Shown: positions 838 through 17,926 of the stretch, in pieces
Layout: every line of letters begins with the position of its first letter
How positions within the stretch are numbered: position 1 is the stretch's first letter
Made by a program: the position numbers and the translations under genes
Assembly: GCA_010015585.1 (NCBI GenBank)
Contig: ML975164.1
Length of the DNA: 64,000 nucleotides
Source of the DNA: Eremomyces bilateralis CBS 781.70
Lineage: Eukaryota
Reading direction: 5' to 3' (one strand)
The notes under the pieces: model-generated
Databases searched by the model: none
Told to the model about the DNA's origin: nothing
Seen by the model: the letters and a program-made list of their open reading frames with translations, nothing else

Positions 838-1271
838 AACGAGGACCTAAGTTAGCGTTTTTGATCATCCGTGATCCTCCGTACGATTAGATACATTGAA
901 TTACAGAGTTTGAACGCAGAATGGTCGGCTTGACTCGTATAAAGCATCATATACTGGACCATCCCAATCTGCGTCAGAGATTCGAATGGATTGGTATGTC
1001 ATGTGACCAGGTAGGGTGTGAATGGAGCCGGGTGGCGGGTGTGAATGGAGCACAGCGGGGTGTGAAAGGAGCTTCACCCCATGAACACGACATGTCACGT
1101 GCACCCATCGCCTCCGCCTCTCCGAAGTCCAAACCGATGGTGTCTGGTGATTCCCAGCCCCTTCACTTTGTTCTACATTGAATTCGCCAATTCTTCCATG
1201 ATGTATTCGTGATCCCGTTTAGCAATGTTTCAGAAAGCGGCTTATCCCTTGTTTTTACGATTATGCGCATA

Positions 1272-3112
1272 ATGGAACCTTCAACGCCTAGTAGTACACC
1301 ACCAAGGTTCTCATATCCGGGTATACCTGGCCCCGGCGTTCGGCGTTCATTTACTGCCCCTACGAACGGATCGCTAAGGCCGTGTACGACGGGGAGTCCC
1401 CACGCCGAGTCGAACACGTCCCAAGGCGACGTTGAGGTCATTACCACTTATGGCGATGCGAAGATTGTCAAGTTTGGAAACATAGCACGCCTAGGCTCGA
1501 GTAGAGGGAACCCGGATCCAGCTGGAACCTTGCCCTGGACTTCGGCGACGGAGCGGACTCAAGCGGCTGGTATGCTCGAGCAGACGCGGATATGGCAAGA
1601 CACTATCATCTAACAATCGTAGGCCCGCTTAGTATTTATCGCGTCAAGAGTTCCGGCGTCTGTTTCCTTAATTCTGGCAAATTCCTCCTCTCCATCTTCC
1701 CGAGATCGCAATTCTGGTGTGTGGACGGAGAGTCGATCTTCGTGATGCCAATGCGAGATGAATACTACCGAATTGAACTCTCAGTAAAGAGCGAAGAGGA
1801 TAAGGCTGGGGTGGAGGAGTTTAAGACGAAGATTGGCACTGTCCTGCTCTACGAGAAGACTCCATGTCCATTTAAACGAAGATTCCATGTTGAGCTGCCA
1901 GACCAACCGCAAACACCGGCCCGGAAGAAGAGAATAGGCAATCCGGACAAGAAGGCCAAACGTTGGACGCTGGACAGGGTCTGGAAACCAGAAGATGGCT
2001 CTGCCTTGGACCGTACAGACGACTCCTCTGGACACAGCAGTGAGACCACCCCATCGGTTGAAGACGAGGAAGAAGATGAAAGCAAAAGCGAGGGAGCCGC
2101 AAACCGTGTCGATTCTGTCCTCGGTGACAGTCCTTCTTCGCGGCAGATCACCGAAATGCGATCACCAGAAACCACGGAATCCTCAAGACCATTCCGGCAT
2201 CCCATCCGATCCCTATCAGACCGATCTATCACGGTGCCGCCAATGCTCCAGCTTCAACAGACGCGATTTACTCGTTCGGATGTACAGGCATCAGAGCCTA
2301 CCCCTGTTCCATCGCAGCCAATACCCACTCCCGCCGAACCATCGTGCGACCCTGAAACCGCCAGCCTCTCGAGTGTCGATTCATTCTACTCTACCTCCGA
2401 AAACGATGCAACCCTCTCCTTCCTCGAGCCCCCTGCCCTCGAAGATCTTGCCGACCCCGACACTCCCCGCCAAGCCTCCCACCGCCGAGACGACTTCGAA
2501 ACCACCGTCATCTCCTCCGAGAATTCCGACATATTCTCTCCGACCCGCTTCTCCGAAGACAACGCCATCCCATCTCCGCCATTCTCACCAGGACCTGATC
2601 TGCCTCCCGCCTTCCGCACCACCTCAACCGCACCTACATCCACCTCCACCGCCATCTATCCATCCCTCCGACGCGCCCACTCCCCGCTCCCGCACCCTTC
2701 AAACCTCGCGGTCCCGACCCATACGCCTAGCACGCTGGGTACGCTCATCGGCGCCGGGATCGCCGGCAAGTTGACCCGCGGGCTGCTGCGGCTGATCATC
2801 GGCCCGCCCGCTGGGCTGGTCACGTTGATGGTGCGCGTGGCGAGGCGAATCATGGAAGGGACCGCGGAATGGGGCGTTGTGGATACGCGGGATATCTTCA
2901 GTGAGGTGGATGGGCAGGTTGGGGGATGGCAGTCGGGGGAGGAGGACGAGGACGAGGAGAAGTGGGCGGAGGTGGTCGAGGATGGAGTGTTGGTAGGGAG
3001 GACGGAGGACGGGAAAATTTATGAGGGCGTGGTGAGGCGGAACGTGAGAACGCAATCTAGTTGGGAAGATCGTGAAGGTGAAGCGACTGTCTCAGGGGCT
3101 GATGTGGATTGA
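1272..3112 (+). CDS. INP1: Inheritance of peroxisomes protein 1 (Inp1)-like; intron 1570-1622
   Basis: Motifs AKIVKF, LPWTSATERT, PLSIYRV..FLNSG..PRSQFWCVDGES..YYRIEL and EKTPCPFKRRF match the fungal Inp1 domain. A GTATGC..CTAAC..TAG intron joins ORFs 1209 and 1592 in frame. Confidence 0.75.
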
Positions 3113-3548
3113 TTTTCGTGTGCGAATCTTCTGCAGCGCTTTGATTTGGAAACATCTTCGGCATAGCTATGGTTTTCGCCAAGGTTTGGCTCCTCTCCAG
3201 GTTTTCAGCAGCATGTTTTCAGCAACGGAGTTCAGGTTCGAGTGTCGTGCAGCGTCAGCCTGCCCGGGCTTCCAGGTCCGCTTTGTTAGTCTGCGTATTT
3301 ATCGGCGTCATCCCATTGTACGAGTCCATGTCACGGCCTACAGTCTTCGCACGCATCGCGTCTATCTTCTGAACATGTCATTATAAGTTACAAATCGACC
3401 ATCTCCTTGCCGCGAAACTGTCACCCCTATCTCTCAGAACTCCAAACCTGCATGGACTTGATATCGGAGAAATGCGGTAAGAACGGAACAGAATCAAAGA
3501 AAGGCATCATTGCAATCGTATATTCCAGGACCCCCCTTCCGCCCTCTT

Positions 3549-4976
3549 CTACGCTGCCTGAATTACCCGGGTTATACGATACGGCCCAGTCGGATCTGGC
3601 CGCGCCCACTCGACATGCATATTTTCCTGCGACCCGATTAGTGTGAACACCCGCCAACGAAGCCCTCCATCATCATCCGCATCCACGATATCCGTGATCT
3701 GTTCGATTTCTTTCTCTTTCTGCTTCTCCTTCATCTTCGTCTGCCGTTCGATCTCCTTCTGCTTCACTTTCTCCTTCCTCTGCTGTTCGATTTCGTCGCC
3801 GGGTTCGAGAACCTGCTCCGCTGCCTTTGCCATCGCCGCTTTCCCCGCCACGGCTTTCTTATCCGCCACGGTCTTCTTCGCGGCTTTCCTATCCGCCGCC
3901 GCCTTCTGTTCCGCTGGGGTCTTTGCGGGCTCCCTGGCGGCCCCCCTCGCGGCCCTCTCTCCGGTCTTCACCACCGCCTTCGCTGCCGCGGCGTTCTCCA
4001 TCGCCACTCTTTCCCTCTCCGCGTCTTCTTTCATCTTCTTCGTCACAGCTCTCTTCGTTATCGCTACTAGCTATATTCCAAAAGCAACTATTAGCCAACA
4101 CTCATCAAACAGTGCGCGAAGAAACCAAAGCGAACCCAAGTGAACGTCAGAATGTCAGGCCATCACAAGCGACTTGTTTAATCACCCGTCACACCCGCAG
4201 CCAAGAAAAGCAACCCCCAAGAAAGGGGAGAAGAAGGCATGACCCACCACTAAGAACCCCCCCCCGCTTCTCCCCCGCCCTTCCCGTCTACCAGATGAAC
4301 GACACCACGCCAGGACTGTCATGCCCCTTTCCGACCACATAATCATTAGTCTGGAGAAAACTTTGGGAGATGTCCCGCCAGTGCACCCCGCCGCCGCCAC
4401 ACCAACAGCGCCCATTTTCGCACGGTTTCTTCGTGCTCTCGCATAACGACCCGGAGATGATGCCGTAGTACATGCCCTTTGTGGGATGCGCGGGGAGCTG
4501 GGTGCCTGGTTTCCCCGGTTTAGGAAGCGCTGGCGACGCTGGCTCCTCGTCGCTTGTATACACGTGTACTATGCGACTCGTGTCCCACCGTGGATGCGAG
4601 TCGCTGCCATACTTCCCCAGAGAGATCGGTACGGCTCGAGCTCCGGCGTAGTTCGACTCTCCACCGTGGCGCGACCGATTTCCTGGCTTCGTGGACGTCT
4701 TGGACGTCTTGGGCTTCTTGGTCACCTTGACCTTCTTGACCTTCTTGGACTTCTTCACACGCGCGACGTTCATTCGAATTACCTTTTTAGCATCTTTATT
4801 CAGCGGCTTCGTCATCGTCTTCTTGCCGCCTAGCGCCGCACCTTCAGCGATCGAGGGGAGAGATGGGAGATCTAGAGATGGGGAGACTTACTGCCACTCC
4901 CGGTCGTCGCGAACTCCTCGTTGTGGAAGTACCGGCGCGGTTGGAGCTCGGCTCGGTTACGGAGTTTGACGACCAT
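3549..4976 (-). CDS. Hypothetical Lys-rich/coiled-coil protein, multi-exon (model uncertain)
   Basis: ATG 4976 (MVVKLRNRAELQPRRYF) and a GTAAGT..TAG intron at 4891-4830 join in frame to ORF 4288-4815. A CTAAT..TAG acceptor near 4071 leads into the charged coiled-coil ORF 3549-4046. The middle junction is unresolved. Confidence 0.4.
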
Positions 4977-13286: not shown

Positions 13287-14495
13287 AGGCGAACAATAGG
13301 AGCTCTGAGATGAGGTCTGATGCTGGACAAGCACAATACAACTTGGACAATAGCAGTCGGAATTGAGAGATTTAATAGACTCTGCGAGGGATCTCGTATC
13401 GTAGAATGCTATGAAATTGAAAGAAAGCACTTTTATCAAATTGGTTGGAGATTTCGACGTCAAAATTACCCTTTTTTCATTCCAGTTGTGTCACGGATGA
13501 TAGATGAGATGTATTAATATTCTCGGGATGATTTGATATTTCCCTGCCGGTCGGGCAGATGACGTGTGGGGCAGGAACGAGAACTGCAGGTGCACGAGAA
13601 GAGCTCGGGCGCAGCTGCCGGTTTTCCCCTCATAATGCCTCAGGCAGTCAGGCAGTCATAGAGCCATTCAATTTGATTAGGTAGCCACCCCCTCGATCGG
13701 AACTCGGACCCTGACATCTGATGGATCACATATATGCATGGAACCCATGTCACACCCCCTGCACCCGCCAAGTCCCCAGCCACACTCGGCAACATCCCCC
13801 CTGCATCTTTCATCCGTGCCTGCCGCCGCCCTCAACACTTCACCAGCCCTCTTTTTCCTCCACCATCCACGATCGTATCCATCACTGAAACATCTGGCCC
13901 CCCATCGGCCCCATAGGCCATGAATCGCACTCTCTCAGGAGAGATCTAGCCACCATGACTCTCAATATTGATTCTGATTTGCCCTATTGCCAGTCTGGGC
14001 ATCAATATTCCCACCACACCTTGGTAAAACTGGGGCATCTCTATATTAAGCGGCACGAGCAGGTGCTGACTCTCCTTGGATGGGGCCCAGAACCACCATG
14101 AGAAAAGGAAAATGGAGTTAGAGAAATAAATGGCTGGAGCATAGCCTTCCCACTTTCAAGAGGAATAAGAGTCGTGTAACATCCTGCTAACCTTCCATTA
14201 TTTTCGTTCACATCTGATCTTCATCGTTGACACTTGATCTATCTCGGAAGCAGGAACCCGTCTTCCCGCTCCTTTTACATCTGATATCTTTTTGTTTGCA
14301 GGGAATCATCCAATTGCTCCTACCCTTACTCGGTCACCAACACTCACCACCTCCTCTCTTCCCGCTCTCCAACCTCTCACTCTCTTCCCACTCTCCAACC
14401 TCGCAGTATTACCTCTCACCACCCGTCTCCCACAGAAATACATCTTATCTACCATCCCAAGCCTTCCATCTCGTCAATTCTTCACAGTCGTATTC

Positions 14496-16183
14496 ATGTG
14501 GTCGACTCCCTCCCTCCGAGCAATCGCTCCTCTAGCATTGCTACTTTCTCCTGCCGCCGCTCAAACGTGGAGTTCATGCAACCCCCTCACATCTGGAAGC
14601 TGCCCTCCCAATCCCGCCCTCGGCCGGGAAGTCAGCATCGACCTCGCCTCAGAATCAGATAGCTTCACCGTCACCGGCGGATCGGTGAACTATGGCGCAA
14701 GCGGTGCCGTTTTCACCGTCGCAAAATCCGGCGATTCCCCCACCATTTCCTCCATATGGTACATCATGTTCGGTCGGGTGGAAGTGGTCATGAAAGCGTC
14801 TCCCGGCGCCGGCCTCGTCAGCAGTGTGGTCCTGCAATCGGATACGCTCGACGAGATCGACTGGGAGTGGCTCGGTGCGGATCCCGCGCAAGTTCAGACC
14901 AACTTCTTCGGGAAGGGAAATACCGATACCTACGACCGTGGCGCATTCCACCCCAACCCAGGATCGCAATCGGAATACCACACCTACACAATCGATTGGA
15001 CCCCAGAGCAGATCGTTTGGCAGATCAATGGGCAGACCATTCGAGCTCTCAATCAGGCGGACGCGGCTGGCCAATACCCCCAAACTCCGATGCAGATCAA
15101 AATGGGCTCCTGGTCCGGAGGTGATCCAGCCAACTCCCCGGGGACCATCGAATGGGCTCGTGGACCAACCGATTACTCCCAAGGTCCCTTCTCCATGTAT
15201 GTCCGGTCCATCAAGGTTACCGACTACTCCAAAGGCACGCAATACCGCTACAAGGATACCTCCGGCACCTGGAAATCCATCGAAGCAGTCGGCGGCTCCG
15301 TCAATGCCGTAGGCGGCGGTTCTCCCGTCGAATCCGCTGCCCCCGCGGTGACATCCAAGTCCACCGGCCAACCTCTCCCCTTCGAAGGCACCCATCGCCA
15401 ATCGGAGTCTATCACCACTCGAACCGGCTACCCCTGGGTCGCAGAACCGTCCAACCCTTCATCCACATTCGTGACGTCGTCGTATCCGGGTCTTCCGTCT
15501 GGATGGACCGTATCCGGCTCCGGCAAGGTAATCCCGGCCAGCTCGGCCCCTGTGAGTATGGACGATCATTCCTTTTCTTCTCCGACCCCTCCCCCCAATC
15601 CAACAGCCGGTGCGCAAGGCCCCTCGACGACGCCGCAAGGAGGCTCCTTAGCTCCACAACAAACCGACGCGTCTCCGGCGGTCCAACTAGGTGATCCTTA
15701 CCCACTCCTTCACCCAGTTGACACCTGAACTTCTCTCCGCCCTTCTCTCCTCCATTCTCCCCTTCCACTGTCGTCGTCACCCTCTTGGAATTCTCGCTAA
15801 TGTCGATATCATAGTCACCCCCTCAATCCACCACCTCTCCCTCGCCTTCCTCCTCGCCTCCACCGGATGCTGGCTCCGCCTTCGATTCGACATATGAGTC
15901 CATCTCCGGCTGGGACAACCGTGGCTTCGCCACTGTACAAGTCGTTCCCGCCCGCTGGGCCTCCCGGTCTAAGAGCTTCGACGAGCAGGGCTTCGAAATC
16001 ACCGCGGCACCGACACCGGCAAGCGCGGACACGACAGCCAAACCTCTAGCGGTGAGGGCGCAGGATCCTTCGGAGGTGTATGGAGCAGGAGCCGGGCGGA
16101 GGGCAGGAGAGAAGGAAGTAGGCTATGCAGCCTGGGGCATGGGAATCGCGGTGGGCGCGATGATGTTGATTGGAAGGCTTTAG
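14496..16183 (+). CDS. Crh-family GH16 chitin/glucan transglycosylase, GPI-anchored; intron 15552-15814 (alternative donor 15556)
   Basis: Signal peptide followed by QTWSSCNPL, catalytic DEIDWEWLG, YPQTPM and a Ser/Thr/Pro linker. The terminal exon 15815-16183 ends in hydrophobic AAWGMGIAVGAMMLIGRL*. Confidence 0.9.
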
Positions 16184-17926
16184 AAGAAAACTAGAAAGCG
16201 TGGCGTCGATTGTGTTGCATAAGCGTGGCGTTTGGGTTGTTTCGGATGGATTATAAGATAGAAATGGAATGAGGAGCTGACATGGCATGTAGATAGATGA
16301 GATGGGATGAATAAGGGATGAGTATTGCGACCAGGACTGAATGCTATTGTTACCTGCGGTCGACGAGTCTATCGGACGTTAGACGAATGGATAATGGGAC
16401 TTGGGCCATTTGAATTGGTGCAGATGTGATATGGTCTCTTTACAAAACTGTGATCATGCAGGACCGCGCAGTAGGATGGTATTAAATGATATAACCTTTC
16501 TATTCCTTAGCCGATTCTCCTCTCGATGTCTACGGTAGTGAAAATAATTCCAGTTACACCCGACAACCTCCCCAGTCATCATGTACCCCCTCAATCCTCA
16601 TCCAAGCTAGCGCACGCCACCCTAACTCCAACTCCACCTTGCCCAGTTTCCCACTGCTGACTGACATCCCACCACAGTCGTACTGCATCATTTCTCCAAC
16701 TCCCAAGTCCACCTCCCAACCGGACCCTCTATCATCTCGCCGCCATCATACCACCATCCGTCCTAGCATCTGCCGTGCGACTGGATCGGGCGACGAATGG
16801 ACACCTCGGAGCTATATATCAGCCCCGGACCAGCCAGGGAAGTTTGTGGACGGCTCTGTGGTCCTTTGAATTGATTGTCCAGACTGTTGTGGGGGGGTTG
16901 ATATTGAATTGTCAACTACCTGTGCCGTTGAACTCCCTGAGGACGAGAGGGATTGTCCCCAACGGAAGGCAACCTCACCTTGCGGGGCTACCGCCGTCTG
17001 GTAAACGAAGCGACCAAGATCCCAACGCCTCTTCTCCCCACTCCTTAAACCGGCATCCTCTCAACGTGAATGAGAAACGGGAATGACCATCGCATATCCG
17101 ACTCATTAACTCCAATGTCGATCCCTGCTCTTCTTAATAACCGACGACGCCGTTGACATGACCCATCGCCTTGGAATCATATCACGATAGATCAATGCGC
17201 ATTCACTGTCCGCAAGAATCGCCGATTGAGCCCGTTTGATCGATGATCTTCCCTCCCGTCGCATTCGACTCATCTGGTTGGAAGCGAGAGAGAATTTAAT
17301 TGTCAACTGCCGTACGGGTAGCTGCAACGCGACGTTTGCATCCGGGCACTCACTCACTCCTCACCACGCCATCTCATCTCACGGACGGTTGAGCGGCATC
17401 AGTCGGTATTGCAATCCGGTTTGGTTGCGCTTGCTGTTTGGTGCGATCGCGTGGATAAAAACGCGGTGACTGACTGAAGACGTTAATGTGTTGTATGAAT
17501 TCTTGCGAGAGTCACATCACCCATCCGCAGTGTACATAGTACATATTGACTTCCCGCACTTGATTTTGCTCCCTGCACGTATTTTCTTCCTTTTATATGT
17601 CCTTGCTGTTCACATCGCTCTTCTTCACCCCTGTACATGCGTGCTTAATTACCTTACATACGCGAGCATTCCATTCCACTGCCATTGCGTTCCGAGTACA
17701 ATCTCCCTGTCCCATCGCACAGAACCCAGGAGGCGGATTCGGAGGTCGGGCAACGTCGCTCAGATCGGTGGTGCTACTGGAGTTCGGGTGTGATTACGCG
17801 GGGACGGATCAGCGCTCGCATCTCACGACATCGTGTTCGGTGTTGTGATATGTGAGGTTCTTCACTCCACACCACAACTCTTCAGCTTCATCTTTCGTAG
17901 TCTGAGAAGTCTCTGCGCGACTCACG

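Follow-up and report, generated by a model that had tools for sequence, protein, structure and literature searches.

The stretch analysed here, referred to below as the window, is 64,000 nucleotides of contig ML975164.1 from Eremomyces bilateralis CBS 781.70, a Dothideomycete, and the element under study is a cell wall enzyme gene on its plus strand at positions 14496 to 16183, whose last exon is reached through alternative splice donors and read in two frames. The gene begins with a constitutive exon 1 (14496–15551), an open frame of 352 amino acids that starts at the ATG at 14496 and leaves the exon in phase 0 at 15551. The encoded protein has a hydrophobic N-terminus (judged by eye), which forms a putative leader followed by a GH16 domain and a conserved linker that ends in ...PSGWTVSGSGKVIPASSAP. 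The catalytic GH16 domain occupies residues 57–222 (14664–15161) and matches Pfam PF00722 with an E-value of 1.9e-48 and a score of 164.7 bits against a cut-off of 22. The nearest solved chain is 6ibu_A, the Aspergillus fumigatus Crf1 protein ("Probable glycosidase crf1"), with an E-value of 3.4e-84. The translated domain contains DEIDWE, which matches the motif E-x-D-x-E that we take to be the catalytic site of Crh-type GH16 enzymes. The first 352 residues of the public protein P0001, named "cell wall glucanase [Eremomyces bilateralis CBS 781.70]" at NCBI, are 100% identical to exon 1. By homology, the gene is predicted to encode a Crf1/Crh-type GH16 chitin-glucan transglycosylase.

At the end of exon 1, the sequence reads CCT/GTGA/GTATGG (15549–15561), which places one GT at 15552 and another at 15556; two GY dinucleotides thus stand 4 nucleotides apart, as in the tandem donors known as GYNNGY sites. 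Donor 1 (GTGAGT, 15552–15557) leaves the frame in phase 0, and the junction 15551^15815, with GT..AG borders, leads into a long tail and an isoform of 474 amino acids. Donor 2 (GTATGG, 15556–15561), lying 4 nucleotides further 3', is used in phase 1, and the junction 15555^15815 leads into a short tail and an isoform of 380 amino acids, which is the sequence of the public model P0001. Both donors are joined to the sole acceptor, which is preceded by a branch-point-like CTAAT at 15797–15801 and ends with the TAG at 15814 (the whole element spanning 15797–15814). A third donor (GTGATC, 15691–15696) lies 139 nucleotides 3' of donor 1; it is likewise used in phase 1, removes an intron of 124 nucleotides through the junction 15690^15815, and yields an "extended short" isoform of 425 amino acids, in which 46 extra frame-0 codons precede the same short frame.

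The terminal exon therefore contains a dual-coded segment (15815–15897), both frames of which occur in spliced RNAs. Frame a, read from 15815, begins as a Ser/Thr/Pro stalk, SPPQSTTSPSPSSSPPPDAG..., and stays open for 122 codons up to the stop at 16181–16183. Frame b, read from 15817, comprises 26 codons that encode the hydrophobic peptide TPSIHHLSLAFLLASTGCWLRLRFDI and ends at the TGA at 15895–15897. The segment 15552–15690 is an optional exon extension of 46 Ser/Thr/Pro-rich codons, which belongs to the intron when donor 1 or 2 is used and to the coding sequence when donor 3 is used, frame 0 being open throughout. When the intron is fully retained, frame 0 meets a stop at 15726–15728, and the product has 410 amino acids and lacks a hydrophobic end. 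The original prediction, made from the letters of this DNA, had described the tandem donor, the single acceptor and the two tails. On direct reading, its coordinates for the donors, the acceptor, the CTAAT and the stops are all correct, and the long tail of 122 amino acids and the short hydrophobic tail in the other frame are both open as claimed. Its donor set of 15552 and 15556 was right as far as it went and overlooked the third donor at 15691.

The intron of the window (15552–15814) is 263 nucleotides long, compared with 60–87 nucleotides in the 39 other distinct loci described below. The extra intron sequence is Ser/Thr/Pro-rich, has frame 0 open and is coding when donor 3 is used. An origin of the intron and extension (15556–15814) by duplication, whether of exon 2 or of the last part of exon 1, was considered and rejected, the local alignment scores being 20 and 21 against a mean of 19.7 (standard deviation 2.7) for shuffled sequences.

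The use of these donors in E. bilateralis was examined in sequencing run X1, which contains 97% of the sampled words of 14300–16400. The type of this run was guessed ("RNA?"), no run being recorded as RNA; it was treated as RNA-derived because its contigs bear GT..AG junctions at depths of 1000–4800. Exon 1 is covered by X1 contigs without a gap. The long junction 15551^15815 was found in one contig at a depth of 1821, the short junction 15555^15815 in one contig at 1053, and the extended short junction 15690^15815 in one contig at 4792, the highest of the three (the last was recorded as 15687^15812, "GT..AG (cut +3)"). All three have GT..AG borders and share the acceptor side 15815. Most of the junction depth in X1 therefore falls to the short frame, with 1053 and 4792 for its two junctions compared with 1821 for the long one.

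A contig that retains the extension (15526–15660) has a depth of 5971, and a contig across the boundary between the intron and exon 2 (15662–15841) has a depth of 939. The three junction depths and the latter value sum to 8605, compared with 8268 for the exon 1 contig, and 4792 and 939 sum to 5731, compared with 5971 for the extension contig; the proximity of these sums indicates that the X1 depths are internally consistent. The corresponding proportions, which are rough values from the contig means of one run, are approximately 56% extended short, 21% long, 12% short and 11% unspliced. The original prediction had allowed for the case that only one junction would be seen, and this case does not hold, both 15551^15815 and 15555^15815 being present in X1 contigs. 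It had also proposed a third, unanchored form that arises by intron retention. The stop of this form was placed correctly, and the RNA behind it possibly represents just precursor, as the intron-containing contigs (depth 939) may be unspliced transcripts and not a third protein form.

Two further contigs were noted at this locus. One X1 contig of 4110 nucleotides, with a mean depth of 1284, starts exactly at 15815 and reaches about 19925, past the stop of the gene, which suggests that transcription runs into, or overlaps with, what lies downstream. Run X2, which is labelled as another organism, contains one contig of 361 nucleotides (15268–15628) at a depth of 2.9; it is identical to the window and unspliced across donors 1 and 2, and it is possibly a carry-over between runs.

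The conservation of this arrangement was analysed by aligning the C-terminal part of exon 1 with 17 orthologues and scanning metagenome contigs with the alignment. The scan gave 188 pattern matches; a relative is encoded by 110 of them, and the best 80 of these 110, together with the window, make up the 81 sequences analysed. A sequence was counted as having the full design when an in-frame GTNN/GT donor led through a short intron, which contains a branch-point-like site, to a single acceptor, and when the exon beyond encoded a long tail with the motif described below and, in the shifted frame, a short tail. It is present in 43 of the 81 sequences, 40 of which are distinct, the window included. 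A further 17 sequences are exact duplicates of sequences with the full design, 11 have no in-frame tandem donor, seven were missed by the anchor pattern, and three have a tandem GT without an identifiable exon 2. The short tails are 21–30 amino acids long and are terminated by a stop in each of the 40 distinct sequences, and CTAAC/CTAAT-type sites lie approximately 13–25 nucleotides 5' of the acceptor in the related loci.

The sequence of the downstream donor is also kept. It is GTRNG in 40 of the 40 distinct sequences, with a purine at +3 and G at +5 in each, and GTAAG in 27 of them. In the upstream donor, position +3 is often occupied by C or T, in departure from the consensus. The commonest contexts are GTGA/GTAAG (12 sequences) and GTCA/GTAAG (10), followed by GTGA/GTGAG (five), GTAA/GTAAG (three), GTGA/GTATG (three, including the window) and GTTA/GTAAG (two), with five singletons.

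The remaining sequences were inspected individually. L008, L010, L012, L013 and L025 carry GRVVP instead of GKVVP and were hence missed by the anchor pattern and left out of the 43; all five have a tandem donor, both frames are present in L025, and no exon 2 candidate was identified in L008. The contig of L023 stops 41 nucleotides past the donor, so that no exon 2 is identifiable, and L027 has a tandem GT in a sequence where the motif was not found. In L075, the GTCGGT lies inside the codons CCC GTC GGT and is probably a false call, a GTAA/GTACG being located further on. Of the 11 sequences without an in-frame tandem donor, three (L021, L031 and L036) are contigs that are already spliced. In L071 and L076, the short hydrophobic tail follows directly, with no intron in between; only one donor is present in L072 and L078; and in L079 the reading frame continues into a Ser-rich tail without interruption. 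L006 (59% identity) has lost the GT of donor 1, and L044 and L054 lack an in-frame tandem donor and are ambiguous in structure. The distant relatives, with 40–45% identity in the query region, include the intronless L071 and L076, the single-donor L072 and L078, and L079. The intronless distant loci L071 and L076 give a hint that the short tail could have come first.

Both forms are found in other species as well. The spliced contig L021 is 98.6% and 98.5% identical to the genomic locus L016 in the two segments around a skip of 64 nucleotides that begins at donor 1, and L036 is 99.9–100% identical to the genomic L032 across a skip of 62 nucleotides at donor 1. L031 is 92–96% identical to the genomic L037 across a skip of 58 nucleotides that begins 4 nucleotides later, at donor 2. 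L031 also skips 60 nucleotides upstream in the gene (L037 2209–2268), and some relatives therefore have an extra intron within the region that is the single exon 1 of the window. Among the public models, P0122 (376 amino acids, short tail) and P0123 (473 amino acids, long tail) are identical over 349 residues and split exactly at the junction; both are 100% identical to the genomic locus L051 over the query segment of 131 amino acids, and the neighbours of the L051-related query are Leotiomycetes such as Rhynchosporium, Diplocarpon, Hyaloscypha and Lachnellula. In Botryosphaeria dothidea, the models P0097 (short tail) and P0101 (long tail) are identical at 339 of 340 positions upstream. In the lichen-forming lineages (Lecanoromycetes), each model type occurs in different species, with Lasallia pustulata P0083 as a short model and several long ones. 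Spliced contigs or paired models thus show both forms in Dothideomycetes and Leotiomycetes.

The tails of the homologous proteins, which follow ...PSGWTVS.SGKV.PPSSAP, fall into three groups. In the long group, two xDxxGF motifs stand between a Ser/Thr stalk and a hydrophobic end; the short group reads V-[ILN]-(D)-[IV]-P-S/T-R-F/L-x-Y, followed by approximately 14 hydrophobic residues and often a W-R-x end; and the "VSK..." models are intron read-throughs from gene callers blind to introns. Two sets of 120 listed proteins each were classified, the first consisting of matches to the window protein and the second of matches in the Leotiomycete clade. Among the matches listed in the first set, 20 are short-hydrophobic, 48 long, two long without a hydrophobic end, 13 read-through and then hydrophobic, 33 other or read-through, and four truncated, with none lacking the anchor. 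The corresponding numbers among those listed in the Leotiomycete-clade set are 19, 18, five, 16, 52 and five, with five lacking the anchor. Short-hydrophobic and long tails thus number 39 and 66, respectively, among the 240 homologues listed. Some models in these sets have unusual structures: P0155 (Drepanopeziza) is a chimera that passes from the short frame into the long frame, P0174 (Cudoniella, 983 amino acids) is a long form fused to an unrelated downstream protein, and P0010 has odd ends. These three look like annotation artefacts caused by the dual-frame exon.

A tandem GT is not in itself remarkable, as the usual donor consensus already includes GT at +5/+6. The openness of the short frame over approximately 25 codons was also rejected as evidence, since further down the exon stops occur in this frame once per 39 codons and such a length is expected by chance. 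Two observations go beyond chance: RNA contigs show the use of both donors, and relatives have retained the second donor as well as the hydrophobic short frame. The mean hydropathy of the short frame is +1.05 in the dual part, compared with −0.75 over the rest of the long-tail coding region, and it is higher in the dual part in 40 of the 40 distinct sequences. The resemblance of the tails to glycosylphosphatidylinositol (GPI) attachment signals was assessed using a crude rule of our own, in which a hydrophobic run ends within 7 residues of the C-terminus and a small-residue triplet lies 5–13 residues before it. Short tails pass this rule in 37 of 40 cases and complete long tails in 27 of 36, compared with one of 40 for the third frame as a control. 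In the window, the long, short and extended short isoforms pass, and the retained-intron form fails.

The pattern of nucleotide conservation differs from that of a region coding in a single frame. Among 29 sequences of the main clade, the nucleotide identities of the three position classes in the dual part are 0.476, 0.701 and 0.560, and the third positions in the flanking single-frame regions, with identities of 0.389 and 0.364, fall below even the least conserved dual class. Conservation is highest at the second position of the short frame, which sets hydrophobicity in that frame and merely swaps Ser, Pro, Ala and Thr in the stalk frame. Substitutions were then classified in 10 independent close pairs, the expectation being derived under uniform mutation with stop-creating changes excluded. 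Changes that are non-synonymous in both frames number 23, compared with 51.8 expected, whereas 41 are synonymous in the short frame only (28.8 expected), 47 in the long frame only (36.3 expected), and seven in both frames (1.0 expected). Non-synonymous changes of the long frame spare the short frame in 41 of 64 cases, against an opportunity share of 0.357 (p = 3.7e-6), and those of the short frame spare the long frame in 47 of 70 cases, against a share of 0.412 (p = 1.1e-5). This symmetric sparing of the other frame is what a two-frame constraint predicts and is therefore read as constraint on both; the sequence comparison indicates purifying selection in both frames. The tandem donor and both frames are considered an ancient arrangement that is kept by selection across Dothideomycetes, Leotiomycetes and lichen-forming lineages.

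Beyond the dual-coded segment, the long frame encodes a conserved core with two xDxxGF motifs, WDNRGF and FDEQGF (15893–16000). In an alignment of 31 long tails, its consensus is T-x-[YW]-D-x-x-G-F...K-S-[YF]-D-x-x-G-F, in which F38 is invariant and T31 and G37 are conserved in at least 90%. The remainder of the long tail (16001–16183) consists of a low-confidence spacer and a hydrophobic end, ...AAWGMGIAVGAMMLIGRL, before the TAG stop at 16181–16183. The AlphaFold2 model of the long tail has a mean predicted local distance difference test (pLDDT) score of 64.8, with values of 81–91 over residues 31–60, and its confident part covers approximately 35 residues. Strands at residues 27–33 and 39–45 form a beta-hairpin in the model, with a helix at residues 109–121 on the hydrophobic end, and the core is accordingly predicted to form a small beta-hairpin module. 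The stop of the short frame (15895–15897) is located at the start of this module (15893), and the dual-coded part therefore corresponds exactly to the low-confidence Ser/Thr/Pro stalk. No Pfam family was found in the long tail or in the retained-intron peptide, and a search with the 122-residue long tail among longer proteins gave no match at E ≤ 0.01. In the Alternaria-like loci L007, L016, L032 and L045, the second xDxxGF motif is absent and the long tails are shorter (94–96 amino acids).

Taken together, we consider with a probability of roughly 0.7 that this Crf1/Crh-type GH16 gene carries an old GYNNGY tandem donor that acts as a dual-coding switch between two GPI-signal-like C-termini. 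The splice switch had been put forward in the original prediction, which had looked to orthologues for the second donor and for a hydrophobic second-frame tail. Both features are kept, the full design being found in the 43 sequences described above, and the switch is supported further by both junctions in RNA. Several points weigh against this interpretation. The isoforms are known from RNA and sequence and not at the protein level, and the X1 depths come from the assembled contigs of one run of guessed type, which makes them rough and silent on regulation. The GPI label of both tails is given by the crude rule and not by a validated predictor, and the short tail of the window is atypical, with six polar or charged residues past the hydrophobic run and little similarity to PSRF.Y. 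The substitution test assumes uniform mutation, and its counts are modest, with only 118 substitutions. A Ser-rich stalk coded by TCN tends to read hydrophobic when shifted, so that the signal is partly compositional; the within-gene hydropathy control lessens this concern and does not remove it. The 11 of 81 sequences without an in-frame tandem donor indicate that the design is not universal in the wider family. In addition, GYNNGY sites in mammals are mostly splicing noise (PMC4267661).

The last point leads to the explanation that the spliceosome simply slips between two GTs 4 nucleotides apart, that the hydrophobic shifted frame is a by-product of TCN codons, and that one isoform alone matters. 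GYNNGY splicing is described as "primarily splicing noise" in human and mouse (PMC4267661), an open shifted frame of approximately 25 codons is not unusual with one stop per 39 codons, and knowledge of the isoforms at the RNA level only would fit such slippage. However, the depth of the short-frame junctions (1053 and 4792) exceeds that of the long junction (1821), and each of the 40 distinct loci has a well-formed downstream donor. The length of 21–30 amino acids and the hydrophobicity of the short tail are kept in 40 of 40, while the same frame is hydrophilic further down (−0.75), the third frame passes the GPI-like rule in just one of 40, and substitutions avoid altering the short-frame peptide (p = 3.7e-6). 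Pure slippage is consequently regarded as very improbable. A regulated kind of unproductive splicing, in which one junction class tunes the other via an unstable mRNA or protein and the peptide itself has no role, would draw on the observation that regulated GYNNGY sites in mammals are mostly tied to nonsense-mediated decay (PMC4267661), and from 15898 onwards a long 3' untranslated stretch follows the short-frame stop. The stop is nevertheless in the last exon, with no intron 3' of it, and in the one run, transcripts with the short frame predominate at steady state. A regulatory frame would, moreover, need just a stop and not a conserved hydrophobic peptide of constant length that resembles a GPI signal, which makes this explanation quite improbable.

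Both isoforms could also be real without the short tail being a GPI signal. The short tail would then be a C-terminal membrane anchor or would cause retention in the endoplasmic reticulum (ER) or vacuole, so that splicing would choose between a GPI protein bound for the wall and a form that stays inside the cell or is integral to a membrane. The hydrophobic run of the short tails has 14–20 residues and is often followed by W-R/Q-x, and in the window six polar or charged residues lie past the run, such residues after the hydrophobic run being unusual for GPI signals. By analogy, the reported location of BcCrh1 of Botrytis in vacuoles and the ER during saprophytic growth (PMC8042016) would also be consistent with this possibility. 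However, a small-residue triplet lies 5–13 residues before the hydrophobic run in 37 of 40 short tails, as in GPI signals, and Crh proteins are generally GPI-anchored (PMC2721682). A short tail of this other kind is regarded as unlikely.

The proposed switch between two GPI-signal-like tails may be described as follows. A cut at the first GT keeps phase 0, and the tail then consists of a Ser/Thr/Pro stalk, the predicted small beta module that bears the two xDxxGF motifs, and a C-terminal hydrophobic signal. A cut 4 nucleotides later shifts the frame, such that the first 81 nucleotides of the exon are read as a spacer and a hydrophobic stretch and then reach a stop; this short tail resembles a GPI-attachment signal that immediately follows the conserved cluster of small residues (..SSAP). 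The third donor, which is specific to this species, adds 46 residues before the same short frame. Both mRNAs are presumed to be translated and both tails to act as GPI signals, in which case the short-frame peptide would be cleaved off entirely as a removable signal, and the long form would be a stalked enzyme with its own GPI signal. The two forms might thereby sit nearer to or further from the membrane, or belong to separate wall and membrane pools. Work in yeast indicates that the GPI-proximal sequence steers the fate of a protein between membrane and wall. A TCN-rich Ser stalk pairs with an NTC-rich hydrophobic signal, and overprinting is therefore easy in either direction.

A further-reaching form of this proposal is offered tentatively, at somewhat less than even odds. 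The switch would be older than the split of Dothideomycetes, Lecanoromycetes and Leotiomycetes, and one Crh gene would give two differently tethered wall cross-linkers, one GPI-linked right after the catalytic module and linker, and the other carried on a stalk of approximately 100 residues with the beta module and its own GPI signal. The short peptide would be a cleavable signal overprinted on the Ser stalk, TCN being read as NTC; the choice of donor would set the site in the wall, and the third donor of Eremomyces would lengthen the linker of the short form.

The individual components of this arrangement have counterparts in known systems. GYNNGY donors are the commonest alternative 5' splice sites in mammals, where they are judged to be mainly noise or coupled to decay (PMC4267661); the present site is similar in that two GTs 4 nucleotides apart are both used and the choice shifts the frame, and it is different in that both frames are conserved as peptides across fungal classes and the shifted product is a short, complete C-terminal signal and not a truncated protein. 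Human dual-coding exons with constraint on two frames have been surveyed (bioRxiv 10.64898/2026.05.28.727796, PMC13247117 and PMC1868773). As in those regions, one exon is read in two frames by isoform with both frames constrained, whereas here the gene is that of a secreted fungal wall enzyme and the two frames pair a disordered Ser/Thr/Pro stalk with a hydrophobic signal. In fungi, alternative splicing at the 3' end creates peroxisomal isoforms of glycolytic enzymes that bear the peroxisomal targeting signal PTS1 (Freitag et al. 2012, as cited in PMC4207609). Splicing at the 3' end alters a C-terminal sorting signal and is conserved among fungi in both cases, although PTS1 has three residues, whereas two GPI-signal-like tails in overlapping frames are chosen here by a donor shift of 4 nucleotides.

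The closest comparison within the enzyme family is A. fumigatus crf1, for which the C-terminal variants Crf1, Asp f9, Asp f16 and Crf2 have been claimed from one gene (PMC2721682, in part). According to the same text, Crf2 corresponds to Crf1 residues 1–327 joined in frame to residues 390–395, with no splice sites found there, and Asp f16 differs by frameshifts and its existence is called doubtful. The two cases have in common the enzyme family and the claim of several products that differ at the C-terminus; unlike here, no tandem donor or dual-frame exon is described for crf1 in the available portion of that paper. In the literature searched, which left most subscription journals and supplements outside, no description of a tandem-donor or dual-frame Crh gene was found. 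The term "alternative splicing" has no occurrence in the Crh papers PMC6458159, PMC7389268 and PMC8777122, and GPI, splic-, isoform and intron have none in the BcCrh1 paper. Tandem-donor splicing, dual coding and the switching of signals by splicing are each known.

Functional alternative splicing is considered rare among filamentous fungi, and tandem donors whose spacing of 4 nucleotides shifts the frame tend to be regarded as noise. In the present gene, which codes for a highly expressed chitin-glucan cross-linking enzyme, a donor pair of this kind and the two frames that it serves have been retained in three classes of Ascomycota. The arrangement accounts for conflicting public annotations, in which models of approximately 370 and 470 amino acids are given for the same gene and chimeras such as P0155 occur, and it provides a clean natural example of overprinting, in which a hydrophobic signal shares its nucleotides with a disordered Ser-rich stalk. 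In fungal wall biology, it has long been asked how residues close to the GPI site direct a protein to the membrane or to the wall, and the switch offers a testable mechanism by which one Crh gene could serve both membrane-proximal and outer-wall pools.

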